Shown here: positions 13,829 to 40,262 of the stretch, piece after piece | Layout of the letters: each line of letters starts with the position of its first letter | How positions within the stretch are numbered: the stretch's first letter is position 1 | Source of the DNA: a virus | DNA length: 64,000 bases | Virus record (IMG/VR): IMGVR_UViG_3300011921_000005 | Coordinates: 4,354-68,353 of that record | Direction: 5' to 3' (one strand) | Position numbers and translations under genes: made by a program | The notes under the pieces: generated by a model | What the model was told of the DNA's origin: nothing | The model's input: the letters and a program-made list of their open reading frames with translations, nothing else | Database searches by the model: none

Positions 13829-15697
13829 CTATGAATAGTTGTAGTCATTTAAGTTGACAGTAATCTGTCGTGATTGGTCGTACTTTGTATGAAACATATT
13901 CATACGATTGTGTGATTTTGCGAAGTTGCTTGCATTAACAAGTCTGTCTCGACAGCCAAGTTCAGCAAACCAGAAAGCCATGACGGTATCCGTCTTTTGC
14001 GACTTAGGCGCATCTGGATACCAGGTAACAAGTTGCTCGATAAGAGTTTTTAAACCTTCTGATGCATGGGTTGATGGGAACTCAATAAGAGCATTGCCAT
14101 CTTCCCAACCGTGAAAGAGGGTCGTCAGGGATGCAACTCCGAAGTTGGTGTCCCATTTGTTTTGACCCGTATGATGTTCGCGTAAAATTGCACCCCGTGA
14201 CGACAGGTATTCCCGTACCTCACGGTCCTGAGTCAACATAGTTTGAAAAGCGTTCTTCTCAACTCGCCACTCAGAAACTCGATATTTATCTGTCCAGCCC
14301 TTAATCAGTTCTCTGATTTCATCTGGCTTCATCGCTGCCTTGTTAGATACATCTAGCAGGTAGCGCTTTTGTGTAGAAACATCAAGTGCTAGACATACGG
14401 CTGCTGTGTAACCAGAGCCTGCGGGGTCTAGCCCTGCGACTACAATCAATCCATCCATACCGTTGTAGCGAACACCGTTCTTACCCTTAGGTATTGTGCC
14501 GATGTTACGAGCGCCATTGATGATGCCCTTAACCGCTGTGGTAGGAAATGCTGAATCTTCGTGGACCTGTTGCTGTTGGTAAACCATAGCCCACAAGTTA
14601 GGTGAGATGCGAGAGCGCTTCTTATGAAGTGCAGGTCCATCCCACTTGGCATACAGCCCGTTCTCGTCAGGTACTCCGTTACCCGATACGGGTGGCATGT
14701 TGGTCTTAGCCCAGAGGGTTGTCCATTTTTCAGGGTCCTCGTCAAATTCTAAAACTGCAGGTTGTGCAAAGTAGGTCCATGGGGAAGTCTCATCAGGGTA
14801 GCGAGCAGGGTCGCGTAACTCTGAGTACAAGTCCCTTGGGCGAAGGCGGGTACCAATTACAAGAAGGCGACCACCATCGTTATCAATACGGGACATAACT
14901 TCCGACTGAATCCAGTCAATCTGCTTCTCAAATTCATGGGCGTTGGTATGGTCAACACAGTCATCCATGATGATTAAGTCAGCACGAGCGCCGTAGATAT
15001 GACCACGGATACCGATAGCCTGGACAGTAGGGTCCTTTTCGCCTGAGTCACGAGACTCGGAGGATAGGTAAATTAAGTCCTGCTTCCATGAATCAGAGCC
15101 TTTTTGGAATCCCCCTGGCGGACCAAAGGTGAGTTGCAAGTCCTGATACTTTGGATGCGTAAGTCTGTTCTTTATGGAGAGCAGGAACTTTTGCGCCATA
15201 GCCTGTGTCTTAGACACAACCATTATTCTGATATTAGGGTTCTGGCAAATCCGATAGACCGCATAGTTGACCGTAATAGTCGTTGACTTTGCGTGTTCTG
15301 GTGGAGTGTTAACAATTAATAAATCTGGGCTACCCTGTTCATGGGTAATGGCAGGATGGACATCCGAAGGTTCTCTACCCTCCAATAGGTCAATCCAATG
15401 TTCCTGGTGCTTGAACACCTTAGTGCCTAAAAATTTTTCTGAGAATTCAGGGAAGGGTGGTACTTCCCCTCTAGCCCCGCCTATTTCACCACGGGCAGTC
15501 ATACTACGGACTTTATCTACCTGGGTGGCAAACTCCTGGTCTATCTTTCGGTAGTATTCGTAGGTCTTAACGCTACGACCAACGGCATCCATGGCTCGTT
15601 GGACAGAGTACCCCTCCATTAGGAATTCGATAATCTGCTTCTTGATAGCATCGCTTCGATGGCTAGCAGCAGTTGTTCTTTTTCTCTCCATAGGCAT
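13829..15697 (-). CDS. terL: Terminase large subunit, phage X, with N-terminal HTH-like extension
   Basis: Walker A variant PPEHAKST, Walker B LIIMDD, nuclease motifs AGLDPA and KTDTVMA. Confidence 0.92.
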   Translation of the reverse strand: MPMERKRTTAASHRSDAIKKQIIEFLMEGYSVQRAMDAVGRSVKTYEYYRKIDQEFATQVDKVRSMTARGEIGGARGEVPPFPEFSEKFLGTKVFKHQEHWIDLLEGREPSDVHPAITHEQGSPDLLIVNTPPEHAKSTTITVNYAVYRICQNPNIRIMVVSKTQAMAQKFLLSIKNRLTHPKYQDLQLTFGPPGGFQKGSDSWKQDLIYLSSESRDSGEKDPTVQAIGIRGHIYGARADLIIMDDCVDHTNAHEFEKQIDWIQSEVMSRIDNDGGRLLVIGTRLRPRDLYSELRDPARYPDETSPWTYFAQPAVLEFDEDPEKWTTLWAKTNMPPVSGNGVPDENGLYAKWDGPALHKKRSRISPNLWAMVYQQQQVHEDSAFPTTAVKGIINGARNIGTIPKGKNGVRYNGMDGLIVVAGLDPAGSGYTAAVCLALDVSTQKRYLLDVSNKAAMKPDEIRELIKGWTDKYRVSEWRVEKNAFQTMLTQDREVREYLSSRGAILREHHTGQNKWDTNFGVASLTTLFHGWEDGNALIEFPSTHASEGLKTLIEQLVTWYPDAPKSQKTDTVMAFWFAELGCRDRLVNASNFAKSHNRMNMFHTKYDQSRQITVNLNDYNYS

Positions 15698-16231
15698 ACC
15701 GAAACGCAGTAAAGGAAGTTTCGGGTGTATCTCCTAACCGTAGGCGTAGTCTAAACGAAGCCGAAGGTTAGGGCTTCTCTTAGGGTGCGACCCCCAGGGT
15801 CGCTGCTAGTGTGTGGAGAGGCTCCGATTATTTCGCCTCTCACTTATACTATAGGTGTCCAAAAGGTCCTTAGCGGACACTTTTGTCCAAAGTTTTTTTA
15901 CGGGTTTTTTGCCTACGGCAAAAGTGCTGGTCAGAGGCATATAGTGACCCCAGAACTATCAAAGTTATGTGGGTAGATACACATACACATACACACCACG
16001 GATTTAACAATCCTGGGGTGAAGCATGCACGCTCACTCATCTACTTTCCATGCTGGCTTGGCATTGCTTGCAGGGCTAAGCGGTGCAGGCTTGAAGGGCT
16101 AGGGCAGGGCTTGGCTTTCACTCTTGATTCACTCGCGCTCAATATGCCCCGCGCCCCCCGCATTGCTTGCCCGATTGCCCCGCATGCTTGCCGTCTCAAT
16201 ATGTGAGACACCTACCCCCTCACGCTCGCCA

Positions 16232-16247
16232 TGTGATGTTCGTCACA
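16232..16247. promoter_or_regulatory. CRP/GlxR-type box
   Basis: TGTGA-TGTTCG-TCACA, perfect consensus; TTGACA at 16274-16279 downstream. Confidence 0.7.
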
Positions 16248-16273
16248 TTTTCAAGATTGAGCGTGTTAGGTGC

Positions 16274-16304
16274 TTGACACCGCATAAACGGCGGGTGTAG
16301 AAAT
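16274..16304 (+). promoter_or_regulatory. Putative early promoter
   Basis: Perfect -35 TTGACA and a weak -10 (TAGAAA) upstream of the first early gene. Confidence 0.5.
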
Positions 16305-16357
16305 CTCTCATGGCTTAAGTCATCGGGGCTTAAGACTCAAGAACAGGAGAACAAGAA

Positions 16358-16993
16358 ATGACCGCAACAACCGCAACCAAGGCGAACAAGGCAAGCAAGG
16401 CAGAAGCACTCTCAACAATCACCAAGGCACTAGAACAGGCTCACGAGATTATCAAGGCAGAAACAGGGGCACCCCGCGCAACTCTTCTCGTGACTCGCGA
16501 CCTCAAGGGGCGCAAGGGTCACTTCACACCCTTCACACCTTGGAAGGCGGGGGAAGAATCTTTCTCGGAAATCGCTTTCAATCTTGAACACTTCACAACC
16601 CCCGAGGAACTTCTCTCAACACTTCTCCACGAGGTGGCTCACTCAATGAATCACATGAACGGGATTGAAGATTGCTCAAGCAACCAATACCACAACAAGC
16701 ACTTTAAGACTCAAGCCGAGGCACTCGGTCTTAAGACACTAGAAATCAAGGGCAAGGGGCACGCCTCAACAGAACTCACCGAGTTTGGCGCTAAGCGATG
16801 GGCTAAGGCGCTTAAGGTGCTTTCAAATGCTTTCGACTTGGTGGCACTTGGTGGCGAATCTGCCAAGAAGAAGGGGCGCAATACGAATCTCCTCAAGGCA
16901 ATGTGTCCATGTGAGCAGGTAATCCGCGCCTCTCGTGGCGTGATTGAAGCGGGCGTGCGTTGCGATATGTGCGGGTGCCAATTCGTGGCTTAA
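16358..16993 (+). CDS. SprT-like zinc metalloprotease-fold protein
   Basis: LLHEVAHSMNH (HExxH plus third His) and a C-terminal CPC...CDMC zinc finger. Confidence 0.8.
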   Translation: MTATTATKANKASKAEALSTITKALEQAHEIIKAETGAPRATLLVTRDLKGRKGHFTPFTPWKAGEESFSEIAFNLEHFTTPEELLSTLLHEVAHSMNHMNGIEDCSSNQYHNKHFKTQAEALGLKTLEIKGKGHASTELTEFGAKRWAKALKVLSNAFDLVALGGESAKKKGRNTNLLKAMCPCEQVIRASRGVIEAGVRCDMCGCQFVA

Positions 16994-17002
16994 GACAGAA
17001 AA

Positions 17003-17077
17003 GCCCCCCGCCCGATAAGTCGGCGCAGGCTCGCGACCTACGGGGGGCACGACATAGGGAGAAAGTCTCCTTATGAC
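17003..17077 (+). ncRNA. tRNA-like mini-element plus 3' hairpin (copy 1)
   Basis: GCCCCCC/GGGGGGC stem, CCGA-TAAG-TCGG arm, AGG-CTCGCGA-CCT arm, then ACGA; followed by CATAGGGAGA-AAG-TCTCCTTATG. Confidence 0.55.
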
Positions 17078-17099
17078 TTAAGACAGGAGAAAGGGGCTA

Positions 17100-17300
17100 G
17101 TGATGACAATCACAGCAACTAACTACAAGGGGCGCGTTTGGACATGCGACCACCACAACGCCAAGATTGAGGCGATGATTAACGAGGGAAAGACAGCCGA
17201 GGCGATGGCTCTCGTTAATGTCTTAAGCCCCAAGAAATCGCGGGGAATCTGCGCCGAGTGTCGGCGCTTATGGCAAGAGACACCGCCAATGAATCGGTGA
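17100..17300 (+). CDS. Small early protein with possible Zn ligands
   Basis: 66 aa, CDHH and CAEC; SD GACAGGAGA. Confidence 0.65.
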   Translation: MMTITATNYKGRVWTCDHHNAKIEAMINEGKTAEAMALVNVLSPKKSRGICAECRRLWQETPPMNR

Positions 17301-17311
17301 CTTAAGACACA

Positions 17312-17379
17312 GCCCCCGCCGATAGGGTACGGATTCACAATCCAACGGGGGCACGAACTCTCAACCTAAAGTTGAGGGT
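17312..17379 (+). ncRNA. tRNA-like mini-element plus 3' hairpin (copy 2)
   Basis: GCCCCCG/CGGGGGC, CC-GATA-GG, GGA-TTCACAA-TCC, then ACGA; followed by CTCTCAAC-CTAAA-GTTGAGGG. Confidence 0.55.
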
Positions 17380-17383
17380 TAGG

Positions 17384-17415
17384 TGTGACCAACATCACAC
17401 GCAAAATGATTGACA
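17384..17415 (+). promoter_or_regulatory. CRP/GlxR-type box plus TTGACA
   Basis: TGTGA-CCAACA-TCACA (17384-17399), 10 nt, TTGACA (17410-17415). Confidence 0.7.
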
Positions 17416-17499
17416 CGCTCAATCACCGCGTGAGAAGGTTACACCAAGCAAGAACACGACAGGCAGAGCGCAGGTTGTGTATTAAGACAGGAGATAAAA

Positions 17500-17820
17500 A
17501 TGTCAGAAGAAGTAAAGACAGCAAGCCAGCAATTCGCAGATGACTATCTGCTAGTGGTTGAAAATGACCGCGAAGGATGGGATGAGATTACTCAAGAAGC
17601 CCGCCGAGTTAAGTACAACATGCCAGAACTCAGCGACTCAATCCGCGAACAGTTCGAGACTCTTGCCTCTCAGGTTATAGAAAACTCAGAAGAAGAAATC
17701 ACAGAGTTTGGCGCTAATGTCTTAAGACAGGTACTCATCGGCATGGGTTCATCAACTTTCGACATCATCGCTCGCGAAGTAATCGCCCGCGATAAAGAGA
17801 CACTAGGAATTGAGGCTTAA
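17500..17820 (+). CDS. Hypothetical early protein
   Basis: 106 aa acidic ORF; SD GACAGGAGA. Confidence 0.7.
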   Translation: MSEEVKTASQQFADDYLLVVENDREGWDEITQEARRVKYNMPELSDSIREQFETLASQVIENSEEEITEFGANVLRQVLIGMGSSTFDIIAREVIARDKETLGIEA

Positions 17821-17823
17821 GAC

Positions 17824-17967
17824 ATGAAAATCACATACGAAATTTATTCAAAAGTCGGCAACTTCGCAGGCTCCAACACAACGGACAGCCTGGCAAAGAT
17901 GGCAGAGATTCGCCACTTACTGGAGAGTAATAACCAAGCCTGCACAATCACAAAGATTGAGGAGTAA
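17824..17967 (+). CDS. Small early protein (47 aa)
   Basis: Hand-translated MKITYEIYSKVGNFAGSNTT...; starts in the TAA-GAC-ATG junction. Confidence 0.55.
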   Translation: MKITYEIYSKVGNFAGSNTTDSLAKMAEIRHLLESNNQACTITKIEE

Positions 17968-17984
17968 TCGGTATTAAGACACAA

Positions 17985-18000
17985 TGTGACTAATATCACA
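17985..18000. promoter_or_regulatory. CRP/GlxR-type box
   Basis: TGTGA-CTAATA-TCACA, perfect consensus. Confidence 0.7.
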
Positions 18001-18079
18001 GCCCCAAATGTTGAAGAAACCGCGGTCATCATGCGACCATTGGGGCACAAGATAAAGCAGGGAAAGTCCCCGCATTATC
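18001..18079 (+). ncRNA. tRNA-like mini-element plus 3' hairpin (copy 3)
   Basis: GCCCCAA/TTGGGGC, GGTC-ATCATGC-GACC, then ACAA; followed by GATAA..GGG-AAAGT-CCC..TTATC. Confidence 0.5.
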
Positions 18080-18107
18080 GGCACGACATCACGACAGGAG
18101 AAAGCAA

Positions 18108-18662
18108 GTGAAGAAAGCAGAACTCAAGGCAGGTGTTGCTTACTATGCAACATCTCAGAACAACGGCATGCAGACTTACAGCACTTCATTGTTTAAGACA
18201 CATAGCCAACACAGTCGCAATCGTTTCTATGTAATCTTTAATGCAGACGGACAGCCAGCCACAGGATACCGAAGCGCAAGCGTAATCTATATGACCAACT
18301 GCAAGACATACGGATTCGACTGCCCAAAACATGGCAAAGACGGCAGACTAAATTGCTATCGCACAGACTTCCGACTCATGGACATCCGCGATGAATACTG
18401 GGCGGTAATCAAGCGCATGCACGAGGCACGCAAGGCACAGCCAACCAAGGACATTAGAGCCGAGCGCCTACGCCGTATCGCCAAGCGCAATCAGGAAAAG
18501 CAGGAAGCACCAATCAAGGAAGAATTCTATCGTGTCTTAAGTCAGATTACAAATAGTTACTGCCACTCTTATGACCGCCTTGGTGGATTCACACCCGCCC
18601 AAATGCAGAAGATTACCGAAGCACTCAAGGCAAGCATGCCATCAGTCCAGGCGGTGGCGTAA
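18108..18662 (+). CDS. Hypothetical early protein
   Basis: 184 aa, GTG start with SD GACAGGAGA. Confidence 0.7.
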   Translation: MKKAELKAGVAYYATSQNNGMQTYSTSLFKTHSQHSRNRFYVIFNADGQPATGYRSASVIYMTNCKTYGFDCPKHGKDGRLNCYRTDFRLMDIRDEYWAVIKRMHEARKAQPTKDIRAERLRRIAKRNQEKQEAPIKEEFYRVLSQITNSYCHSYDRLGGFTPAQMQKITEALKASMPSVQAVA

Positions 18663-18838
18663 TGAGCGACCAGCAATTCAACCTCACTTTCGTAGCCGAC
18701 CACTTCACCCTACACACGACCATCAACGCCGAGACAGAGGAGCAGGCAGAGGCTAACGCCATTGCCAATCTGCAAGACTTCTACGGCATAGACCTTAATG
18801 CAATCAAGTGTTCATTGACCGAGATTGTAGGTGCATAG
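18662..18838 (+). CDS. Small early protein (58 aa)
   Basis: MSDQQFNLTFVADHFTLHTTI resembles MTNYDVLFMHNHFVLVTTV of 57932..58174. Confidence 0.65.
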   Translation: MSDQQFNLTFVADHFTLHTTINAETEEQAEANAIANLQDFYGIDLNAIKCSLTEIVGA

Positions 18839-18913
18839 TATGTCTTACGACACAATCTGCGGTGACTGCCTTATCCCACTATCACAATGCCAACATGCGA
18901 AGGAGTACAAGCG

Positions 18914-19066
18914 ATGAAACTTAATAGACGAGGCAAAAAAGTTAGAGCGATTCTAATTTATGTCTTAATACTTATTGCAATCTATTCAGTATCGGTTGCG
19001 ATGGGCGTGTGGGAGATACCCGAATCATGCCTAGTTGATGGAGTCGGATGCCCAGATGGGTATTAA
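18914..19066 (+). CDS. Small membrane protein (50 aa)
   Basis: MKLNRRGKKVRA followed by a hydrophobic helix ILIYVLILIAIYSVSVAMGVW. Confidence 0.6.
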   Translation: MKLNRRGKKVRAILIYVLILIAIYSVSVAMGVWEIPESCLVDGVGCPDGY

Positions 19067-19073
19067 GACAGAG

Positions 19074-19105
19074 TGTGACCAACAACACATGACAAATGCT
19101 TGACA
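19074..19105 (+). promoter_or_regulatory. CRP/GlxR-type box plus TTGACA
   Basis: TGTGA-CCAACA-ACACA (one mismatch), 10 nt, TTGACA (19100-19105); same spacing as 17384. Confidence 0.65.
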
Positions 19106-19157
19106 CCTACAACCAAATAGATTTAACTACAACTACCAACTAGACAGGAGAAAGAAC

Positions 19158-19301
19158 ATGACAAGACAAACAAGCAAGACAGCAAAGATGACAGTAAGTA
19201 TTAAGACAGAACAAGGTATCGAGTCTTACTTCTTCTATGACATGGAGCAGTACGGCGCAATCCTCAAGGCGATAGACCAAGCACAGATGGGGGGCAACTA
19301 A
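19158..19301 (+). CDS. Small early protein (47 aa)
   Basis: SD GACAGGAGA; stop overlaps the next ATG. Confidence 0.55.
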   Translation: MTRQTSKTAKMTVSIKTEQGIESYFFYDMEQYGAILKAIDQAQMGGN

Positions 19302-19669
19302 TGAGCAACACAACAGGGCATGTAAATGCCAACGGAGAAGGAACAATCATTGTGCCCGTTGAACTAGACCGCAAGGAATTATGGTCAGCGGTTATGGGGT
19401 CAGCATGGGAAACTTTCGGCGACCATTGGCAGGAGTACGAGTACATTAGCGGTGATTGGGATGACCCAACTAGCAAGGTGCGCCTCGTATGCCATAACGA
19501 TAAGTACGAAAATGTTGAGAAGGTAATCACCATTGACGACATTGCCTTGGCGCTACCTATTGCAAACAAGAAAGTTTATATGGACTTATTTGACTTTGAC
19601 CAATACGATGCTATTTGCGGTGATGCAGTCTTACAGGTTGCAGTCATTGGCGATGTGGTATTTGGTTAG
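19301..19669 (+). CDS. Hypothetical early protein
   Basis: 122 aa acidic ORF, translationally coupled. Confidence 0.7.
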   Translation: MSNTTGHVNANGEGTIIVPVELDRKELWSAVMGSAWETFGDHWQEYEYISGDWDDPTSKVRLVCHNDKYENVEKVITIDDIALALPIANKKVYMDLFDFDQYDAICGDAVLQVAVIGDVVFG

Positions 19670-19825
19670 GACTTAAGACATGAACGACACCGAACGCAAG
19701 CAGATACAGCGCCTTGCAAGGCGAGCGCGTGAGCAACGCAACGCCACGACAGACAACGAATCGTTTGACTATTGGCAAGGCGTTATGGAAAACTTACTCA
19801 ACCAACTAAAGACAGGAGATAACAA

Positions 19826-19939
19826 ATGAGCGAACCACAATGGCTGCAAGGTGACGACATAGCCCTTGGTAAAGACGAAGAAGATACCGAACCCAACCCA
19901 CAGTACGACACACTTGAGGAGATGTACGGAGATGACTAA
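19826..19939 (+). CDS. Small acidic early peptide (37 aa)
   Basis: MSEPQWLQGDDIAL...MYGDD matches MSEPQWLEGDDYAL...MYGDEE in 58174..58368. Confidence 0.65.
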   Translation: MSEPQWLQGDDIALGKDEEDTEPNPQYDTLEEMYGDD

Positions 19940-20195
19940 GGAATTAGAAGTTGGTGCATTACTTAAGACAGAAACAGCCTATGACAAGGACATGAACATC
20001 ACCTTTGATGGGCAAGAGATACGAGTTATCCTGCATTGGGATGACCATGATGGCTTTGATATTCAATGGCTTGACCTGGAAGGGCGCTGGATTCAGGCAC
20101 CTGCATGGGCAGATAAGATTGAGGAAGATGGGCAGATGAGCATTGGCTACTTCCTTGATTCACTTGAAGCACACACCAAGAAGGAGACACCATGA
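19932..20195 (+). CDS. Hypothetical early protein
   Basis: Start moved to ATG 19932 (MTKELEVG); acidic, Trp-rich. Confidence 0.65.
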   Translation: MTKELEVGALLKTETAYDKDMNITFDGQEIRVILHWDDHDGFDIQWLDLEGRWIQAPAWADKIEEDGQMSIGYFLDSLEAHTKKETP

Positions 20196-20368
20196 CAGTC
20201 TTGATGGAGTGCCTTGGTTGTGGCACGACAGTAACCAACCCAAGAATAATGAACTACATGTACGAGAAGTGTAACCCTTGCACCGAAAAGCAGAAGGACA
20301 TGGAAGAGAAAGCAATAGATACTTTCTTGCATGCCGAAGCCGAGAGAAAGTTGGACAGTAATGTTTGA
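20192..20368 (+). CDS. Small zinc-finger-like protein (58 aa)
   Basis: CLGC...CNPC; SD AAGGAG. Confidence 0.55.
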   Translation: MTVLMECLGCGTTVTNPRIMNYMYEKCNPCTEKQKDMEEKAIDTFLHAEAERKLDSNV

Positions 20369-20804
20369 TAACTTAAGACAGATTCATCCGCACGCCCGAC
20401 TGTGGATTGTATCCGCCATCGTACTTGCCTTGGTACTTATGCTCAAAGAACCAGCCACCTTCATTGTGAAGCCACCACATGGCAAGGTAATTGCTTACTA
20501 TCAGAACGATTACCAACGCTATGCAATAGACAGACTAACCGAGATGGACATGCTTGAGCAGTATCCATGTCTCTATGAACTATGGATGCGCGAGTCTAAC
20601 TGGCGACCAGAAGCAAAGAACAAGCAGTCTAGTGCAACGGGGATACCTCAGTTGCTTAGTAGTACATGGAAGAATATCAAGGTGAAGCCCACGCGTGATG
20701 GCATGAAGCAGGTTGATGCGGGCTTGCGCTACATCAAACACAGATATGGAAGCAAAGGTGTGTGCCGAGCATACGCCCACCACTTAGCGAAGGGTTGGTA
20801 TTAA
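20361..20804 (+). CDS. Lytic transglycosylase (SLT/lysozyme-like) with N-terminal membrane anchor
   Basis: LWMRESNW catalytic Glu motif, GIPQL, YIKHRYG, C-terminal GWY; homologue 58378..58818. Confidence 0.8.
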   Translation: MFDNLRQIHPHARLWIVSAIVLALVLMLKEPATFIVKPPHGKVIAYYQNDYQRYAIDRLTEMDMLEQYPCLYELWMRESNWRPEAKNKQSSATGIPQLLSSTWKNIKVKPTRDGMKQVDAGLRYIKHRYGSKGVCRAYAHHLAKGWY

Positions 20805-20807
20805 GAC

Positions 20808-21161
20808 ATGAGTAAGTTTCAACCAAAGCACCACCGAGTTATAGCAGTAAGAGGTAGCCTCAATAGATACGGCAAAGGGTTAGTGTCTTATGTCTTAAGA
20901 TATAACGCACGCCTCTGGGATGGGGCAACATGTCGAGGCATAGACACCGATGTCTTTTACCCAGCGCAAGAACTATTTAGTCGTGATGAAGAGCGCATGT
21001 TCAAACGCATGTGTGCCGATTGTCCAGCGATGGATGCTTGCTTGGAGTGGGGCTTAGCCCACGAAAGGTACGGCGTATGGGGTGGCACTACACCACCAAT
21101 GCGACACAAGATGAGAAAGACTTTAGGATTGGCTATCGCAGACCCACAGCACAATCCATGA
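20808..21161 (+). CDS. whiB: WhiB-family Fe-S transcription factor
   Basis: C...MCADCPAMDAC...GVWGGTT signature. Confidence 0.92.
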   Translation: MSKFQPKHHRVIAVRGSLNRYGKGLVSYVLRYNARLWDGATCRGIDTDVFYPAQELFSRDEERMFKRMCADCPAMDACLEWGLAHERYGVWGGTTPPMRHKMRKTLGLAIADPQHNP

Positions 21162-21167
21162 TACAAT
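21159..21167 (+). promoter_or_regulatory. Extended -10 promoter for the anti-RBS hairpin RNA (X)
   Basis: TG-a-TACAAT, 6 nt before the hairpin stem. Confidence 0.6.
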
Positions 21168-21173
21168 AAGGAC

Positions 21174-21215
21174 AAAGCCCGCTAGATTCTCTCCTGTCTC
21201 TGGCGGGCTTTCTTA
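21174..21215 (+). ncRNA. Hairpin with anti-RBS loop; also a likely bidirectional terminator
   Basis: 13-bp stem AAAGCCCGCTAGA/TCTGGCGGGCTTT; loop TTCTCTCCTGTC complementary to GACAGGAGA; TTTCTT tail. Confidence 0.7.
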
Positions 21216-21219
21216 TGTC

Positions 21220-21759
21220 TTAAGAATCTAAATGTAATTCCTTAGCAAGCATGAACACTTCATCACTCAAGTCATCGAGAGTTCCATCGTTATAGATAAC
21301 ATGATTAAACATGTAGTTATCCATCGCATGCTCTGATGCATGACCATTGACAGCGCTATGGTTGTGTCGGTTGATGCGCCAAAGAGAACCACCAAGTTTC
21401 TTGATTGCATCAGCCTCATTAGGAAAGCGCACATCCGAGATAACAACTTTATCTTCTGACTTAATACCTGATAGTGCTATGTCAACCCAAAAGTTTTCAC
21501 CGAACATCTTGCGACCAACCTCAGTACCTAGCACCTGCAATAGACGGCGCACCTCAGGGTCTTTTTTAGTCAAGTCCCAGCCGTAGTCCTCAACGCGATG
21601 TGCTACATGTGTGATGCTATCCAACTTAGGGTTGAGTCTAAGTAAAGCCTCACGCATAGGGTCAGCAAAAGCAATACGGCGGTATCCGTAATTAAGACAT
21701 AACAATTCTGCCGTGCTGTCCTTGCCTGATTGTGCGTATCCACTTAGTCCGATAATCAT
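21220..21759 (-). CDS. Deoxynucleoside monophosphate kinase
   Basis: IIGLSGYAQSGKDS P-loop, FADPMRE, RRLLQVLGTE, VVISDVRFPNEA, HASE. Confidence 0.9.
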   Translation of the reverse strand: MIIGLSGYAQSGKDSTAELLCLNYGYRRIAFADPMREALLRLNPKLDSITHVAHRVEDYGWDLTKKDPEVRRLLQVLGTEVGRKMFGENFWVDIALSGIKSEDKVVISDVRFPNEADAIKKLGGSLWRINRHNHSAVNGHASEHAMDNYMFNHVIYNDGTLDDLSDEVFMLAKELHLDS

Positions 21760-21890
21760 TACCACTCACCACCAATCCACCAAAATCCTAGGTCAATGTT
21801 CCACATCTTAAAGCGTGGGCTTATGTCAAAACCAATACCAAAGCCAGACTTCTTGCCTGCTTGTAGCCAATACTTTCTAATCATCTTCAT
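21759..21890 (-). CDS. Small Trp/Gly-rich protein (43 aa)
   Basis: Hand-translated MKMIRKYWLQAGKKSGFGIGFDISPRFKMWNIDLGFWWIGGEW; fills the gap with coupled start and stop. Confidence 0.6.
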   Translation of the reverse strand: MKMIRKYWLQAGKKSGFGIGFDISPRFKMWNIDLGFWWIGGEW

Positions 21891-22555
21891 TACAAATCCC
21901 TCACTTCTTCTCTCGCTTGTGCATTAGAACTGCGGTGTTGTCGCCATACTGGTTGCTCTCCGCCGAGTCTATCTTGTAACTTAGTCAGCGCTCGCTTGAC
22001 TCTCTTACGCATGGCTTCTTCTGTTGTGCCGTAGGTTTCAGCCAGCGCGCCAAGTTCCATACCACCATCGTCATAGCGTAGGCGTAGCAACTCTCTATCT
22101 GTGTCCGATAGTTTCTTAAGACCTGATGCTACATCTGCTAGCAATGCCATGCGATTGCCACCTTCGCTTGGTTTACTGGAGCGAGATACAAATTCATTAC
22201 TTAAGTCAGGAGTATCTGTCCATCCTATGTGTGACCACACATCGCGCAGTAATTCATGCAATACCTCATGTGAGTAATAGAAAGTATCTGACATAGGCGA
22301 ACGCGAGTAGCGCGAGCGCTCTTTTGCTGCATACTTCTGTGCTTCATTGAAGAAAGTCTTACGCAGTTTGTACTTAAGACTCTCCTCTGCTTCCCATTGT
22401 TCTATCTTGTTCCAATGTTCTAGCGCCCACAAAGACAGGTGTTGGTACAGGTCATCAACAGTTACCAGGTTGCGGTGCATGCGATTACTACGGGTGGCAA
22501 CCTGCCGTGCCACACCATAGATTGTTTCCCATACCTTGTCCTGATTCTCACTCAT
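21890..22555 (-). CDS. Sigma-70/ECF-like RNA polymerase sigma factor
   Basis: Region-2-like DDLYQHLSLW and region-4 HTH (LSDTDRELLRLRY...ELGALAETYGTTEEAMRKRVKRAL). Confidence 0.75.
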   Translation of the reverse strand: MSENQDKVWETIYGVARQVATRSNRMHRNLVTVDDLYQHLSLWALEHWNKIEQWEAEESLKYKLRKTFFNEAQKYAAKERSRYSRSPMSDTFYYSHEVLHELLRDVWSHIGWTDTPDLSNEFVSRSSKPSEGGNRMALLADVASGLKKLSDTDRELLRLRYDDGGMELGALAETYGTTEEAMRKRVKRALTKLQDRLGGEQPVWRQHRSSNAQAREEVRDL

Positions 22556-22955
22556 CTTTAATCTCTGCCTTCTCGTTCTTTAGTTTGCGCATTGCCATAA
22601 GTAAATCATCTACGGTTATGAGATAACCTTTACTCTTATTCGGGGGAATCTCACATGTAATCGCACGACCAAACTCTTTAATGGCGTACAGCACATGGCT
22701 TGTGGGAACCATGAGTACACCCTGCTCTAGTACAAAAGCCCAGTATGCTGCCTCTGTCACCATGACACCAGACTTCTCCCAAGACTTGGACTTCATGTAC
22801 CAGCACTCTACTTCTACATAAAGATTGTTAGTAACCCACCATTTTCTATCTCGCTTTACTTCTACTGTCTTTCCTTGGGTTAACAGTTCTTCTACTAACT
22901 GCTCTCCCTTTCTACCGTATCCAAAGTCTAAATCAAATGATGAGTTCTTTGCCAT
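22548..22955 (-). CDS. Conserved hypothetical protein, possible PD-(D/E)XK fold
   Basis: GEQLV...TVEVKRD...NLYVE pattern. Confidence 0.5.
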   Translation of the reverse strand: MAKNSSFDLDFGYGRKGEQLVEELLTQGKTVEVKRDRKWWVTNNLYVEVECWYMKSKSWEKSGVMVTEAAYWAFVLEQGVLMVPTSHVLYAIKEFGRAITCEIPPNKSKGYLITVDDLLMAMRKLKNEKAEIKDE

Positions 22956-22958
22956 GTC

Positions 22959-23579
22959 TTAAGACCCAACGCGTTTGCGCAAGCCTTCCGCCCCTTCTTG
23001 TAGGTAAACATCATTGACATCACAGTTATCAGGCATGAACACAGGGAACACATTGTCGAGTTCTCTGCTTATGTTCTTAGCCATCTCTCTACCTGCGTTG
23101 TCTCCATCACAGAACAACATAATCTTTTCCCAGTCAGCCAATACCCGTGAGTAAAAAGGTTTCCAGTTGTTTGCCCCTGGTAGCCCGACTGCCGAGAACC
23201 CTACTTGTGTGGCAATGATAGTATCTATCTCGCCTTCGCATATAACAAGCACATCACTATCAGATTCAAGTGCCTTCACATTATAGATATGCGTGCTTGA
23301 CCCAGGGCGTGAGAGATACTTCGGTCCTTGGTCATTGCTTAAGTTACGAAAGCGGATGTCAATCACACCCGATGGGGTGATGTATGGGATAGCCAACTTA
23401 CCTGCGTATGGTTCATGTCCTGTTTCAGGATTCGCCACGAAGCCGAGGCGGAACATACGAGCCGTTTCCTCTGTTATACCGCGACTCGCCAGATACGGAA
23501 GCACCTCTGCTAGGCTTTCTCCGTAGTTCGTTGTTGCTTTCTCCAGTAATTCTCTCTGCGATTTTGACAGCCTCGCCAT
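22959..23579 (-). CDS. DNA primase, TOPRIM part
   Basis: VICEGEIDT, GLPGA and FCDGDNAG motifs; own SD AAGGAG. Confidence 0.88.
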   Translation of the reverse strand: MARLSKSQRELLEKATTNYGESLAEVLPYLASRGITEETARMFRLGFVANPETGHEPYAGKLAIPYITPSGVIDIRFRNLSNDQGPKYLSRPGSSTHIYNVKALESDSDVLVICEGEIDTIIATQVGFSAVGLPGANNWKPFYSRVLADWEKIMLFCDGDNAGREMAKNISRELDNVFPVFMPDNCDVNDVYLQEGAEGLRKRVGS

Positions 23580-23799
23580 ACTTGACTCCTTCTTTCTTCA
23601 TAATTAGTGAGTACACATCTCCTGCCATGTCACAGGCAAAGCATCTGAATCCGCCCTTGTCAATGTTGAGTCGAGCCGACTTAACCTTATCGTTGTGGAA
23701 GGCACAGCGAACTGTGACCCATCCCTCACGCACAGGTATAGTAAATCCGTAGTGTTCTAGTACCTTAACGATGTCATGCTTAGAGTTTTGGGAGGACAT
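23425..23799 (-). CDS. DNA primase, CHC2 zinc-finger part
   Basis: CAFH.D...SA...FRCFAC...GD; overlaps the TOPRIM ORF by 155 nt. Confidence 0.85.
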   Translation of the reverse strand: MSSQNSKHDIVKVLEHYGFTIPVREGWVTVRCAFHNDKVKSARLNIDKGGFRCFACDMAGDVYSLIMKKEGVKYGEAVKIAERITGESNNELRRKPSRGASVSGESRYNRGNGSYVPPRLRGES

Positions 23800-24148
23800 T
23801 GCTGAGCCTTTGAACAACATAAGCATCACCTATTCCCTTATTACTAGCCTTAATAATCACCAATGGTGATGGTGCCAGCAGTAATCTCTTTGCCAATCGG
23901 TAGTTCTCTGCCTCAACATCTGCCTCACGCAACCAACCTGATAGGTCAATGCGACCATCACGCCGTGGTGCCTTGGCTTCAATCACATACGAATCGTTTA
24001 CTGTCTTAAGAAAGACATCACCAATGTCGTTACGCCCTGCCCGAGGCAGGCGCTGTGCTTCGTAATCTAACTCAACAAACCAATCTGCTAAGTCAATCTC
24101 CCACGCTGCACCTCTACGCTTGTTCGCTGTCTGCGGACTGTTGCTCAC
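23780..24148 (-). CDS. Holliday-junction resolvase (Hjc-like PD-(D/E)XK)
   Basis: KRRGAAWE...DIGD...VIEAK; homologue 63066..63413. Confidence 0.75.
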   Translation of the reverse strand: MSNSPQTANKRRGAAWEIDLADWFVELDYEAQRLPRAGRNDIGDVFLKTVNDSYVIEAKAPRRDGRIDLSGWLREADVEAENYRLAKRLLLAPSPLVIIKASNKGIGDAYVVQRLSNVLPKL

Positions 24149-24851
24149 GCTCTCTCCTCTCGGCTATCTCTACTGATGCCCAGTACAGGTTGTAGTAACC
24201 ATCATCCAGGGCAAAGCGCTTCATGTGCTTTACCAATGCTGATGTATTTGCATAGACTTGTATGCCTGCTGCTTTAACCTTGCGGAAGAAGGCAATGTCC
24301 TCACCAATAAACTGCTCACCGCTTTCATTGTTCTCAGCAAACACAAAGTCTGTCTCACCAAACTTGTCATGCAATGCCTTGATAACAGACTTATGCATTA
24401 AGACCAAACCTAAACCAGCGCTGTCAACCTTAATAACTTGATTGCGTGGCAATGGATGGTGATGTTTAATCTGATACTCATGTTCACCCTCATCAAAGAT
24501 AGCGGGCATAGGTTGCATGAGTGTGTTCTCCATCTGCTTAGAGATAAAGTACACACCACTTACAACTGGGCGAGCAATCTTGTCGGCGGTATCCCATAGT
24601 GTCTTGACAACTTCCTTTGTAAGTACGATGTCAGAGTCAACCCATAACGCCCAGTCAGTACCAACCTTGTTCCACATCTCAAAGGCAGCCTGTCGTTGGC
24701 GTGCAATCTGATTACCCTGCACACGAATAGCGTTGTGAAACGGAACCTCACCAGTGATGATGCTGTACACCAAGCCTTCTGTAAACTTGCCATCTGTGTT
24801 CCCATTGTCACACCAGATAACGGATAGTGTTTCCTTATTGCTGTGTGCCAT
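24114..24851 (-). CDS. GT-A (family 2-like) glycosyltransferase
   Basis: IARQR, WALWVDSDIV (DxD), AGLGLVLMH, GEDIAFF, ANTS...H.K motifs. Confidence 0.8.
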   Translation of the reverse strand: MAHSNKETLSVIWCDNGNTDGKFTEGLVYSIITGEVPFHNAIRVQGNQIARQRQAAFEMWNKVGTDWALWVDSDIVLTKEVVKTLWDTADKIARPVVSGVYFISKQMENTLMQPMPAIFDEGEHEYQIKHHHPLPRNQVIKVDSAGLGLVLMHKSVIKALHDKFGETDFVFAENNESGEQFIGEDIAFFRKVKAAGIQVYANTSALVKHMKRFALDDGYYNLYWASVEIAERREREQQSADSEQA

Positions 24852-25257
24852 CTTCAAACACCCTTTCTGATTCGTCTAGTATCTGCATTGCACCTTCGGC
24901 TAAGTCTTTCCAAGCATCACCCATAATCTTTAGGTTGATTCCGACTTGTTCGATGCACTCTTGGTCGTGTCCTTGGATGATGTGGTCAGCCATTTGGCTA
25001 ACATAATCAGCAAACTGGAGGCACTCCAACCATATTGCGGCAGGGTCGTAGATTTTTCTTGTCGCCTCGTCAATGTGTTCCATAAAGTTTGGAAGTTCAT
25101 TTAGGATTGTCTCCTTCATTTGAGGTGTCAACTTTGCTTTCATCACTGCTTCGGTCATCATCTCTGGAGTAAGTGACAGTTCCCGCATTAAGGAGTGTGT
25201 CATACTCATCTTGTGAAAGGTCTTTGAACCTACCCGTTTCTTTCTCCTGCCAAACAT
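24835..25257 (-). CDS. Hypothetical protein (start uncertain)
   Basis: Protein-like C-terminal 100 aa; ATG 25257 has SD GGAGG but overlaps 25097..25420 by 161 nt. Confidence 0.55.
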   Translation of the reverse strand: MFGRRKKRVGSKTFHKMSMTHSLMRELSLTPEMMTEAVMKAKLTPQMKETILNELPNFMEHIDEATRKIYDPAAIWLECLQFADYVSQMADHIIQGHDQECIEQVGINLKIMGDAWKDLAEGAMQILDESERVFEDGTQQ

Positions 25258-25420
25258 AACTCCTCCAACCCACTGTCCATGAAAAATTCTTAGGTACAAA
25301 CATTAACTGTGCCTTCATGTCAATGAACAACTTGTCGGTTGGCACGGATAACTCTTCTGTTGTTGACAAAGCACGCAGTTCTCCTGCGTTCTCCGCAATC
25401 TTTAATTCCCAATTACTCAT
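25097..25420 (-). CDS. Hypothetical protein
   Basis: MSNWELKIAE...; start overlaps the helicase stop. Confidence 0.6.
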   Translation of the reverse strand: MSNWELKIAENAGELRALSTTEELSVPTDKLFIDMKAQLMFVPKNFSWTVGWRSYVWQEKETGRFKDLSQDEYDTLLNAGTVTYSRDDDRSSDESKVDTSNEGDNPK

Positions 25421-26196
25421 TGCTGTATTAAGTCCAAAATCTGCATACTTGCAGGGTCGTAGGACAGCCACACAGGTGAAGCACCCATGGCATCGGCTGG
25501 TCCGTATCGGTTCTTAACTGCGCACACGCCCATTGATGCTAGTTGTCCGTGTACTGTGAGTATCAAGGAAGGAGTCTGCGCAATCTTGCCATGCAACGCA
25601 GAGCGTGGCGGGCAAGGATTACCTGGGACACCTTCACTTGTATGATGGCAAACAACAACAGCAGCGCCTGTATCTCTAGCCCACCACTTGAGTTCACGCA
25701 TGAGTGTGCGCAGTCCGCCGTACTCATCTTGTCCATCAAGGGTTACATCTACTGCGTTGTCAAGAACGATGAGTTCAACATCCCTACCAAGGCGCTCACG
25801 ACTTGCAAGGACTGCATCCTCTACATCTTTGAGTGTTGGTGCGGAGTCGAACTCCCATAGGATGTGGTCTGCAGCCTTGAGCATTTGCCCTGCCCACTCC
25901 CTATCCATCTCCATGAGAGGTTCGACTTCGTTCTGTGGTTTGCCAGTTAGCATTGCAAGCATACGCAAACTCATTGTGTGAGAGTGTGTATCTGCTGAAA
26001 TGTATAGCGTTGGGACACCAGCATGTACTGCAAGTGATAGAGCAAGTGTTGATTTACCTGCTCCTGGTGGACCCGCAATCATGCTGACTTCACCCCGCCG
26101 AATTGCTATCTGCTGCGCAGCAAGGGTTTGCCATACTGTTGGCAGCGTGGCTCCCCCTTGCGAGGCAGTCTTAATAGCACGGGATAGAAGGCGCAT
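25417..26196 (-). CDS. DnaB-like/RecA-fold replicative helicase
   Basis: GPPGAGKS Walker A, LIVLDN, VVCHHT, KNRYG; homologue 62254..63069. Confidence 0.88.
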   Translation of the reverse strand: MRLLSRAIKTASQGGATLPTVWQTLAAQQIAIRRGEVSMIAGPPGAGKSTLALSLAVHAGVPTLYISADTHSHTMSLRMLAMLTGKPQNEVEPLMEMDREWAGQMLKAADHILWEFDSAPTLKDVEDAVLASRERLGRDVELIVLDNAVDVTLDGQDEYGGLRTLMRELKWWARDTGAAVVVCHHTSEGVPGNPCPPRSALHGKIAQTPSLILTVHGQLASMGVCAVKNRYGPADAMGASPVWLSYDPASMQILDLIQQ

Positions 26197-26199
26197 GGA

Positions 26200-26622
26200 T
26201 TATGGCTGTGCCTTGTGGTTGCAAGCCTGACCTTGTGGCTGAGGGCATGCATAGAAAGCGCGGTATGGCTTGCCTGTTGACTTAGAGATACCTGCTGCAA
26301 CAAAGCGCATTGGTCCTGCACCGCATGCGCAGTTAGGGATTGTGCCTGGTGCTGCTGCTGGTGCCTGTGGTGCTGGGCGCTGTACTGCACCCTGATTCAC
26401 AACCTGTGCGCCTGGAAAAACTTCTTGGATTGTGTTAGTTGCACCTGCAGTACGAGCCATTGATTCAGCAGTTGTTTCCAAATCAATGAGTGCAGCAAGG
26501 CGTTGTGATACTTGGTCAAGAAGCAAATCAAGTTCTGCTCCATCGCTAGCGCGAAGGTTGATGAGCATGCCGTCTTTCTTTGTCTTGAAGTTAATCTGAA
26601 TTGGTGCGTTTTCGTTACTCAT
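26200..26622 (-). CDS. Conserved replication-module protein with C-terminal zinc finger (possible ssDNA-binding/annealing role)
   Basis: INLRA..AELD, Ala/Pro linker, C...M...G...KPY.AFYACP; homologue 61783..62253; function inferred from position. Confidence 0.55.
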   Translation of the reverse strand: MSNENAPIQINFKTKKDGMLINLRASDGAELDLLLDQVSQRLAALIDLETTAESMARTAGATNTIQEVFPGAQVVNQGAVQRPAPQAPAAAPGTIPNCACGAGPMRFVAAGISKSTGKPYRAFYACPQPQGQACNHKAQP

Positions 26623-27454
26623 TTGTTTCTCCTAGTTCAGGGTAGAGGTGGGAGTTCTTTCCTTTTACTGCATAGCATGCATGATTGACTGAACAAGTAC
26701 CGCACATAAACCCAGGTTGTGGGATGAAGATATTGTTATCAACTGCAATCTTGAAGCCCTTGACATGGGTAGCCAAGCGACCTTCTGTGTAGTGGTCCAA
26801 CTCTACAGGTTCAGTTAACTCCCCTGTACGAGCCATCCAGTATGCGCCCTTGACTGGGCGGATGCCCATTGTTTTCTCTGTCAAGATTGCGTAAGTACCC
26901 AACTGGGTGTAGGTAACTGGTGCTTTACTTGATGTCTTAATATCAACAACAATCAGTTCACCTTCGGGCGATACCATGAGGCGGTCAAGAAACCCCTTCA
27001 TGCTTACGCCACCAACTTCTGTATTAAGTTCTGTTTCTACAGCCTTGGCTCCGTCAGGTAGTTCGTAGATTGTGTATCCACTTGTCTCACGGAACTGAAC
27101 CCAGAAGTCAAGCATCTTAGGTCCATTGTCTAGCCACCAGCGAGCATCTTCCTTGTTTGGATATGCTGTGGTTTTCTTGCCACCAGCACGGAAGGGCATG
27201 CCATTGTCTGCCAGTTTGTAGTTCTCTGCCCAGCGCTGTTCAAAGACAGCACGAGAATCGAAGGCTGCTCCTGGCTCAAGGGCATCATAGATTTCTGTAC
27301 CCTCGTGCAAAGACTTGCCACCTACTAGCCAGTAGGATGGGTTCTCCTGTATCTTCTGGATACGGGTAAGGTAGAAGGACCAACCACAGTTAAGCCATGT
27401 TGACATGGCGCTGTGGGAGATATAGTTCTTCCCTGTCTTTTCTTCTAGTGTCAT
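26615..27454 (-). CDS. PD-(D/E)XK exonuclease, RecB/Cas4-like with Fe-S cysteines
   Basis: ISHSA...C, KGFLDRL...VDIKTS, QLGTYA, C-terminal CGTCSVNHAC. Confidence 0.85.
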   Translation of the reverse strand: MTLEEKTGKNYISHSAMSTWLNCGWSFYLTRIQKIQENPSYWLVGGKSLHEGTEIYDALEPGAAFDSRAVFEQRWAENYKLADNGMPFRAGGKKTTAYPNKEDARWWLDNGPKMLDFWVQFRETSGYTIYELPDGAKAVETELNTEVGGVSMKGFLDRLMVSPEGELIVVDIKTSSKAPVTYTQLGTYAILTEKTMGIRPVKGAYWMARTGELTEPVELDHYTEGRLATHVKGFKIAVDNNIFIPQPGFMCGTCSVNHACYAVKGKNSHLYPELGETNE

Positions 27455-27549
27455 ATAACTTCCTTTCAATAGAGGAGTTTACGCTACAAAGTCTCTTCTA
27501 TTGTTAGACACGCCGAGAAAAACTACAGGTATGTAATTCAATTTTCTAG

Positions 27550-27555
27550 TACACT
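27550..27555 (+). promoter_or_regulatory. -10 element of a probable leaderless transcript
   Basis: TACACT 7 nt before the GTG at 27563, with no SD. Confidence 0.5.
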
Positions 27556-27562
27556 CCTGTTC

Positions 27563-27784
27563 GTGCAGAACGGGTTAAGTATAGCCAGGCGTTGGCGTAA
27601 GCCAAAGCCAGCAAAGGCTAATTATAGGGGTGTCCCTACTCATGCTTGCCCATGCGGTGAAAAAGTTTTTATTATCCGTGCAACTTTTGATGACCATGAA
27701 ATCTCTTTGTATATGTTAGATGCAGAGTGCAGCGCTTGTGGCGCTCTGCTTACTGCTCCATGTTTGGCGGACCTTGATGCCTAA
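27563..27784 (+). CDS. Small zinc-finger protein
   Basis: CPCG...CSACG; 73 aa. Confidence 0.65.
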   Translation: MQNGLSIARRWRKPKPAKANYRGVPTHACPCGEKVFIIRATFDDHEISLYMLDAECSACGALLTAPCLADLDA

Positions 27785-27953
27785 GTATGACTTTCGTTGT
27801 ATCAGTTGTAATGTAATATCTGAAACGCTACTCGCCTTTGATGAAAGTCATGTCGCACCAAAGTGTACTTTGTGTGGTGGTGATACAATCCGTGTGTACT
27901 CTCCGCCAGCGATACAGTTTAAAGGCTCTGGCTTTTACAAGACAGGCGGATAG
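27777..27953 (+). CDS. FmdB-family zinc-ribbon protein
   Basis: MPKYDFRC..C...C..CG...RVYS...FKGSGFY signature. Confidence 0.88.
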   Translation: MPKYDFRCISCNVISETLLAFDESHVAPKCTLCGGDTIRVYSPPAIQFKGSGFYKTGG

Positions 27954-27990
27954 ATTTCTTAACTGTAGGGGAAGCGGTTAAGGAAAAACA

Positions 27991-28036
27991 AAAAAGCCCC
28001 CGCTAACTAGATTGCTCTAGCGCGGGGGTTTCTTTG
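27991..28036. terminator. Bidirectional intrinsic terminator
   Basis: AAAAAGCCCCCGC...GCGGGGGTTTCTTT between convergent genes. Confidence 0.85.
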
Positions 28037-28051
28037 TGTCTTAAAACTGTA

Positions 28052-28240
28052 TTACTTCTTCAAGCCAAACTCTTTTGCTGACTTGTCAAGGTACTTAGCA
28101 GCAGGTCCAACAAATCCAGCGATGAAGGCGTAAGCCAACACCTTTGGGTCATGCTCTCCTGCCATGTACAACGCTACTACTGCTGCACCTGCTGCACGAG
28201 CATAGGTAAGAGCGACTTGCTTGAGGGTATTGATGTCCAT
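28052..28240 (-). CDS. Holin (actinophage type)
   Basis: 62 aa, two hydrophobic helices, basic C-terminus, next to the lysin. Confidence 0.7.
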   Translation of the reverse strand: MDINTLKQVALTYARAAGAAVVALYMAGEHDPKVLAYAFIAGFVGPAAKYLDKSAKEFGLKK

Positions 28241-28249
28241 TGTTTCTCC

Positions 28250-32925: not shown

Positions 32926-32954
32926 GTGAGCAGTTTAAACCCATGCTCAGGGAT
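32926..32954 (-). ncRNA. Candidate small H-type pseudoknot (copy 2)
   Basis: Minus strand ATCC-CTGAGCA-T-GGGT-TTAAAC-TGCTCAC. Confidence 0.45.
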
Positions 32955-32960
32955 AATCAT

Positions 32961-39103: not shown

Positions 39104-39105
39104 GT

Positions 39106-39294: not shown

Positions 39295-39296
39295 AA

Positions 39297-40239: not shown

Positions 40240-40262
40240 TAGTCTCCTATAGTTGATTTACT

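Follow-up and report, generated by a model that had tools for sequence, protein, structure and literature searches.

A covarying hairpin downstream of whiB in an uncultured phage, with a loop complementary to early ribosome-binding sites

The hairpin at the whiB junction

The window analyzed here, a stretch of 64,000 nucleotides (nt) that comprises bases 4354-68353 of one 76,622-bp contig (IMG/VR record IMGVR_UViG_3300011921_000005), contains immediately downstream of a whiB gene a hairpin whose loop is complementary to the ribosome-binding sites (RBSs) of several early genes, and this hairpin and its possible function are the subject of the present study. Self-comparison of the contig revealed two related phage genomes of ~37-39 kb lying head to tail, here referred to as X and Y; the hairpin (21174-21211, in window coordinates as used throughout unless stated otherwise) belongs to X. 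The whiB gene (20808-21161, + strand; Pfam PF02467 Whib, E 4e-15) is the last gene of the early + strand block and is convergent to the first gene of the inverted replication module (21220-21765, - strand), which tblastn matches to an annotated deoxynucleoside monophosphate kinase with 45% identity. The stop of the kinase gene lies at 21220, and the intergenic space between the two genes is 58 nt.

An extended -10-like box of the TGnTAnnnT type, TGATACAAT (21159-21167, + strand), overlaps the end of whiB in such a way that its TGA is the whiB stop codon. It is followed by 6 nt (AAGGAC) and then by the hairpin, with a 5' arm at 21174-21186, a 12-nt loop TTCTCTCCTGTC at 21187-21198, a 3' arm at 21199-21211 that pairs with the 5' arm in a 13-pair stem including one U.G pair, and a U-rich tail CTTATGTCTT at 21212-21221, all read on the + strand. 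The initial annotation had described the box, the 6-nt gap, the 13-bp hairpin and the 12-nt loop at these very positions; the U-rich tail that it mentioned is also there, but is only moderately rich in U. The + strand RNA is predicted to fold with -27.1 kcal/mol (z = -4.7), a stability equalled by none of 200 shuffled sequences, and the - strand fold is weaker (-22 kcal/mol, z = -2.4). In an extended fold the U-rich tail pairs with the upstream A-tract.

With its GC-rich stem directly adjoined by a U-rich tract (tail CUUAUGUCUU) the element resembles an intrinsic terminator, and a terminator scan listed a sub-stem of it. The X hairpin thus doubles as a terminator between the convergent modules, as a caveat of the initial annotation had anticipated for both directions. 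The loop departs from this pattern: intrinsic terminators have short, unconstrained loops of about 3-8 nt, and here the loop measures 12 nt, 10 of which are invariant in 64 loci.

These 64 loci are the ones, among 77 whiB-bearing loci of IMG/VR, in which the loop core CTCTCCTGTC (10 nt) is found in identical form downstream of whiB, although their whiB proteins are only 52-97% identical to that of X and their stems and flanks differ; variants of the loop with one or two mismatches were not seen among the 77 loci. For the analysis of the stem we used an alignment (A1) of 41 distinct 62-nt versions of the hairpin from relatives, selected by the loop core, so that loop invariance in A1 is given by construction and 64 of 77 is the unbiased figure. 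The 12 pairs of the inner stem are paired in all 41 versions, and over the whole structure 13 of 21 pairs have changed on both sides, as in the compensatory combinations GCCCGCTAGA/TCTGGCGGGC, GCCCAGCGA/TCGCTGGGT, ACCCATCACA/TGTGGTGGGT and GCCTAGCAA/TTGCTAGGC. The observed covariation was reached by none of 500 shuffles, and shifting the partner by 1-3 columns reduces pairing from 92% to 31-56%. The loop is thus invariant in relatives in which the stem covaries.

Read on the + strand, the inner stems of the 41 versions contain 426 Watson-Crick pairs, 42 G.U pairs and no mismatch, whereas the same 42 cells become A.C mismatches on the - strand. Because the loop is kept while the stem covaries, and because the G.U cells are tolerable on the + strand only, the structure is, as judged from its pairing, that of a whiB-sense (+ strand) RNA with a loop under sequence selection. 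A function on the - strand, either as an RBS presented in the loop for a - strand open reading frame (ORF) or as a CsrA-like GGA loop, was considered and rejected, since a start codon at usable distance is absent, the 42 wobble cells turn into mismatches, and the counterpart of the element in phage Y lies within a co-directional + strand block. A covariance model (R1) made from X-type hairpins finds the hairpins of the L051 and L078 type and does not find those of the Y type, which have an unrelated stem.

It is improbable that the element is nothing but a plain bidirectional intrinsic terminator, with a functionless likeness of its loop to an anti-RBS sequence and a conservation that stems from recent spread or recombination of the segment. 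The GC-rich stem, preceded by an A-tract and followed by a U-rich tract between convergent stops 58 nt apart, is what such a terminator would look like, but if the loop of a terminator had no function, it should accumulate changes no more slowly than the stem. The reverse is seen, the stem having diverged by many compensatory changes with the loop unchanged. The asymmetry of the G.U pairs speaks against equal use of both strands, the loop is unusually long, the Y hairpin has no U tail and does not lie at a convergent junction, and the three loop classes described below each match the early RBS words of their own phages. Ordinary terminators of the same phages provide a further comparison. An X terminator used as internal control (27995-28032, + strand) has similar stem ends, a fully paired stem and a tetraloop, and is without an anti-RBS loop; the covariance model based on A1 also matches this terminator (27981-28046), which has a similar tail and whose tetraloop is TTGC. 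The terminal terminator after the whiB gene of Y has the loop GGTTAAAG, and the other terminators of X and Y have loops of 4-8 nt unrelated to that of the hairpin. Since the control terminators have short and unrelated loops, an anti-RBS loop is not a general property of terminators in these phages.

Many clade A relatives, the group with X-type loops, carry an extra, variable hairpin between the whiB stop and the conserved hairpin (e.g. L100:6345-6400 and L117:6351-6400), and so does L078. It has a conserved purine-rich loop, GAAGGGGAAGC, and is absent in X. This loop is shared by clade A and L078, whose second loops are of different classes. The presence of this upstream hairpin in many relatives, together with the conservation of the 5' half of the second loop, which the usual targets do not need, would fit a loop that is primarily a site for an RNA-binding protein or for another RNA (a host factor, or the GAAGGGGAAGC loop itself), its likeness to an anti-RBS sequence being secondary. 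We regard this as very improbable: X does without the first hairpin, the two loops do not co-vary (clade A against L078), and the clade-specific match to RBS words would be left unexplained.

Complementarity to early ribosome-binding sites

The 12-nt loop, the candidate anti-RBS seed, is complementary to the 9-mer GACAGGAGA, which occurs five times on the + strand and once, in the loop, on the - strand; the expected number is 0.35, and no shuffle reached six. All five + strand copies lie 5-9 nt ahead of the start codon of an early ORF of 37-184 aa, and they are predicted targets at the RBSs of a 66-aa gene (17082-17090; GTG 17100), a 106-aa gene (17486-17494; ATG 17500), a 184-aa gene (18093-18101; GTG 18108), a 47-aa gene (19143-19151; ATG 19158) and a 37-aa gene (19811-19819; ATG 19826). 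An 8-nt match, ACAGGAGA, is found at the RBS of a 211-aa SprT-like gene (16344-16351, + strand; ATG 16358). The RBSs of other X genes read aaGGAGa, taGGAGa or GGAGGTG, the last being that of the capsid-type genes. In a duplex scan over the whole contig the five early RBSs were among the ten best sites, with -16.8 to -17.3 kcal/mol, and a few non-early RBSs of the GGAGAGAG type scored like the early ones. These results agree with the initial annotation, which had named the five 9-mer sites and the 8-nt match, had assigned GGAGGTG to capsid-type late genes and had warned that some non-early genes share the RBS core.

Relatives whose contigs cover the sequence ahead of whiB contain as many as nine copies of GACAGGAGA, all in sense orientation and all upstream of the hairpin; in antisense orientation each locus has the loop copy only, despite the inclusion of 6 kb of - strand genes. 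Among 455 unique early start contexts of clade A that bear a Shine-Dalgarno (SD) sequence, 36% match the loop of their own clade over at least 8 nt and no more than 1% match other loop classes. The logo of 267 unique CAGGAG sites reads ttAAGACAGGAGAaa, and in about 75% of the sites the start codon follows GGAG at a distance of 6-9 nt. Because early gene content differs widely between these relatives, the shared RBS context is a maintained property and not the result of common descent of single genes.

Three discrete loop classes (A, C and Y) were distinguished, each of which matches the early RBS words of its own clade. Clade C comprises L078-L080 and twelve further loci whose whiB is about 44% identical, and has the hairpin in the corresponding position with three unrelated stems. 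Its loop is GGTTCCAGTCC, no copy of GACAGGAGA was found in its loci, and its early genes have GACTGGA(A/G/T) 2-10 nt before ATG, the T of this atypical SD being matched by an A in the loop. In phage Y the counterpart (60816-60881, + strand) is made up of TGCTATGAT, 6 nt that end, as in X, in GGAC and a hairpin at 60831-60881 with a fold of -34 kcal/mol, whose loop (60848-60865) holds CTCTCTCCTTGT and belongs to the class CTCTCTCCTTGTC. It lies 20 nt ahead of ATG 60901 in a co-directional + strand block. The early RBSs of Y read (C)AAGGAGAG, so that from X to Y the C before AGGAG has become A in the RBS and a G has become U in the loop. Conserved forms of the Y hairpin, with a covarying outer stem, are present in 62 IMG/VR loci; of 35 variants, 25 fold more stably on the + strand. 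L198, a member of the Y group, likewise has a loop, ATCTCCTT, that fits its own early genes, four RBSs of which read AAGGAGAT.

The density of the diagnostic words, counted per kb on the sense strand of the 5 kb upstream, reflects the same partition: 1.16 for the own word against 0.02-0.12 for foreign words in clade A, 0.40 against 0 in clade C, and 0.15-0.30 for the own words against 0.03 for the X word in the Y clade. The initial annotation had suggested comparing loops with the early RBS consensus of related phages, and across these three classes the loop does track the RBS context, weakly or not at all in sub-clades D and H of the Y group. Occurrences of GACTGGA in Y-type loci were examined as possible RBSs and rejected, as they are coding sequence (Gly-Leu-Asp-Trp). 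A fourth loop class, TATTGTTAGTCCTTTC, is seen on a clade-A-like hairpin in L051 (4311-4382, - strand), a contig without an early region. The complement of this loop, GAAAGGACTAACAATA, resembles an RBS with its spacer up to the start codon, and an exact-match scan detected the word TATTGTTAGTCCTTTC in other places solely in unrelated viral contigs, where it is the reverse complement of RBS-plus-ATG sites.

An alternative is a purely cis-acting role, in which the loop would pair with an RBS on its own transcript and control a neighboring gene or the stability of the mRNA. In Y-type phages it would then pair with the SD of the next gene, 20 nt further on (an H-type pseudoknot), and in X-type phages with an upstream RBS on the same polycistronic early mRNA. 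Downstream SDs of Y-type loci are indeed complementary to the loop (e.g. H-type AACAAGGGAGAG against the loop complement AACAAGGAGAGAAC), over 8 nt in L198, L200 and L222, and the X hairpin is physically within the 3' end of the early transcript. We nevertheless consider it rather unlikely that the element acts in cis only. In X- and C-type phages the hairpin has no + strand gene behind it, the downstream SD of sub-clade D mismatches the loop, and up to nine dispersed matching RBSs per genome are more than one loop per transcript can occupy.

The predicted targets overlap another abundant sequence. TTAAGAC is present in 54 copies in the 76.6-kb contig (33 on the + and 21 on the - strand) versus about 9 expected, mostly at 16330-24400 (contig 20683-28751), i.e. 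in the early and replication region of X, and often at stop-start junctions (TAA-GAC-ATG) or fused to the SD (TTAAGACAGGAGA). These could be stoperator-like sites, or a signal for RNA processing or reinitiation. An analogous motif of clade C, GTTTAAAC, has 32 copies in 12.3 kb (L151) and likewise occurs directly before ATG. Both motifs would suit an explanation at the DNA level, by which a protein binds GACAGGAGA-like sites at the starts of early genes in a stoperator-like manner and the loop copy is simply one inverted site, specificity and sites having changed together; TTAAGAC does resemble a DNA-level signal, and from co-variation alone one cannot tell RNA pairing and a reoriented DNA site apart. 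This explanation also seems improbable to us, given that TTAAGAC itself is absent from the loop and that the sense copies contain the SD and stand at a fixed 6-9 nt from start codons. Pairing at the RNA level is favored over a DNA site because of this fixed position at the RBS, because exactly one inverted copy exists and always in the unpaired loop of the hairpin, and because the pairing of that hairpin is specific to one strand.

A putative antisense RNA acting on early genes

The element is best read as an RBS-occluding phage antisense RNA; as a conserved feature it is real, and the comparative support for it is strong. We consider it probable, though well short of certain, that the hairpin is a functional + strand RNA whose loop, antisense to early RBSs, lowers the translation of early genes. 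The 12-nt loop would be the antisense seed for the extended RBSs, (A)GACAGGAGA, of the leading early cistrons, and pairing over 9-10 nt, the SD core included, would keep 30S subunits off the early mRNAs. The downstream cistrons, which are mostly translationally coupled, would fall along with them; most of the following early cistrons start at overlapping or TAA-GAC-ATG junctions.

The RNA could come from two sources. One, to which we give about even chances, is a minimal transcript of ~40-45 nt started from the extended -10 box; the other is the 3' end of the whiB or early transcript. A box of the form TGnTAnnnT, or more rarely TAnnnT lacking the TG, precedes the first hairpin by 6-12 nt in nearly all X-, C- and Y-type loci, in surroundings that are otherwise unalignable between the three types. 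It has no -35 box and is a putative promoter. In X and C the unit faces the replication genes, has a U tail and has no + strand gene after the hairpin, and since the box is kept in this arrangement, where only the hairpin can be transcribed, the hairpin RNA itself is presumably a product. For clade A relatives with the additional first hairpin the predicted RNA is about 95 nt long. In Y the unit and the replication genes behind it share one strand, and in Y and its relatives the hairpin would form the 5' leader of the replication-gene transcript. The purpose may be early shut-off, which the initial annotation had placed at the early-to-middle switch, a limitation of dosage, the damping of toxic early proteins, or the exclusion of superinfecting relatives of the same class.

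Several observations weigh against this interpretation. The data support it in part, the comparison with related phages to a large extent. The role as a terminator explains the whole hairpin except the loop. Only 9-10 of the 12-14 conserved loop nt pair with typical targets, and these targets do not explain the conserved 5' part of the loop (UUCUC), as they carry A or T after GGAGA where the loop needs G. The target takes its GAC from TTAAGAC, a distinct and far more frequent motif overlapping the SD. By duplex energy two - strand sites, at 24164 and 28169, score as well as the early RBSs. Both engage the 5' half of the X loop: the former, GAGGAGAGAG (24148-24170), is an RBS directly before GTG 24148, and the latter, GGCAGGAGAGC (28150-28170), is a site at which an ORF start is unconfirmed; they may be extra targets or noise. 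The clades are few, with 3-4 independent loop classes, and in sub-clades D and H of the Y group the own loop fits no better than closely related loops. The early genes are not orthologous between clades, so that co-variation holds per clade and not per gene; the only orthologs common to clades A, Y and C are SLT and whiB, which makes a per-gene comparison of RBSs impossible. Searches of public runs found none that contains the hairpin sequence as RNA. Four runs labelled 'RNA-Seq' yielded only short contigs; they probably represent DNA, and the hairpin sequence itself had served to select them, so that they are uninformative.

A more far-reaching and doubtful extension would regard the loop/RBS classes as specificity groups of an RNA-based translational control, X combining CUCUCCUGUC with GACAGGAGA, Y CUCUCCUUGU with AAGGAGAG and C UUCCAGUC with GACUGGA, in which superinfecting phages of the same class would be blocked and co-circulating ones of other classes would escape, in the manner of heteroimmune phages. 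On this speculative extension the system would be common to a large family of uncultured freshwater actinobacterial podophages, and a promoter-proximal terminator hairpin alone would silence all early transcripts that bear the RBS 'barcode' of the phage.

Phage antisense RNAs of a related kind are known. In the case of c4, the RNA and its target carry matched differences between related phages, and these set specificity. The c4 antisense RNA of the immI operon of phages P1 and P7 (Citron and Schuster 1990, cited in PMC8198154) is presented in the latter source as a small phage RNA whose exposed loop pairs with the ribosome-binding region of a phage mRNA and blocks its expression, which is also what is predicted here. 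c4 has one target region on its own transcript, from which it is processed out, whereas here one loop matches 5-9 dispersed RBSs. The present element also differs in being a single hairpin that doubles as a terminator, and in host phylum and phage type, and a cmscan search of the window at 15000-23000 (both strands, E up to 1) returned no match among the 4227 families of Rfam 15, which include the C4 antisense RNA.

The element shares further traits with those trans-acting small RNAs (sRNAs) of bacteria that occlude the SD with a C/U-rich loop, e.g. those of the RsaE/RoxS type or the prophage-encoded DicF on ftsZ. It has a pyrimidine-rich unpaired seed directed against several SDs, a Rho-independent terminator at the 3' end, and a conserved seed on a variable scaffold; seed and target change together (weakly or not at all in D and H). 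In contrast to such sRNAs, the seed is inside the terminator loop, the whole RNA may be only ~40 nt long, and the predicted targets are the phage's own early genes with their phage-specific SD extension. In phage T4, RegA is a translational repressor and RegB an endoribonuclease that cuts GGAG in early SDs. The proposed task here, to shut down many early phage mRNAs via their RBSs, is similar, but the specificity element would be an RNA in place of a protein, and no cleavage is implied. In Cluster K mycobacteriophages, start-associated sequences (SAS) are an extended SD-containing motif before the starts of a subset of genes. The motif (TT)AAGACAGGAGA likewise includes the SD just before the starts of a gene subset; it differs in sequence and is therefore an analogue and not a member, and it has a conserved complementary loop, whereas for SAS we know of no complementary RNA. 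Bidirectional intrinsic terminators, finally, share with the element the GC-rich stem, the flanking A and U tracts and the location between convergent genes, and differ from it in that it has an invariant 12-nt loop, strand-asymmetric pairing and a Y homologue without a U tail in a co-directional block.

To our knowledge, RBS-covering antisense RNAs of phages are confined to a few model temperate phages, with one target each. If the proposed interpretation is right, a single hairpin of ~40 nt would address the whole early gene set via a phage-specific SD extension, as an RNA counterpart to the early shut-off by T4 RegA/RegB, and the odd RBS contexts common to the early genes of these phages would be accounted for. 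One or another of the loop classes is present in more than 120 IMG/VR loci, and the element is widespread in abundant freshwater actinophages, a kind of phage for which we are aware of no known regulation. The natural loop/RBS classes amount to a ready compensatory-mutant design. For annotation they also suggest caution, as the loop of a 'terminator' can hold a regulatory seed.

Genomic setting of phages X and Y

The structural genes of X and Y show 30-56% protein identity, and the two phages have the replication module in opposite orientations. A segment of 108 bp at contig positions 37282-37389 (window 32929-33036) recurs with 99% identity at the contig end, 76515-76622, and contig positions 1-984 match 39502-40464 with 71% identity. 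Near and distant searches of a phage collection yielded no DNA-level match of X or Y to cultured phages. By terminase, with 50% identity, the closest cultured relatives are Streptomyces podophages such as Immanuel3. Phages isolated on 'Ca. Nanopelagicales' (PMC10202952) may be further culturable members of the family. In IMG/VR there are many relatives, on contigs of ~40 kb, and the public runs that contain the sequence are mine-drainage and freshwater metagenomes.

In its replication module each phage has a gene, at 21890-22555 (- strand) in X and at 65775-66473 (+ strand) in Y, whose product contains a sigma-70 region 4 domain (Pfam E 5e-9) and may have a bearing on which promoters fire after the early phase.

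Streptomyces phage Endor2, which gave the best match to the kinase, was considered as a source of a cultured counterpart of the hairpin and rejected, as it has a different genome plan and the counterpart is absent from it. In the cultured, distantly related Streptomyces phage Immanuel3 (NC_048686.1, locus L256; region 37000-44700, - strand), most of the first 14 early genes are preceded by a context of the (C)AAGGG(G)AGAGA type, which the replication genes do not have. At 38420-38460 (- strand) a pyrimidine stretch, CUCUCUCCCCCUU, lies in an intergenic hairpin in which half of it is predicted to be paired, and this hairpin is a possible candidate for a culturable counterpart.

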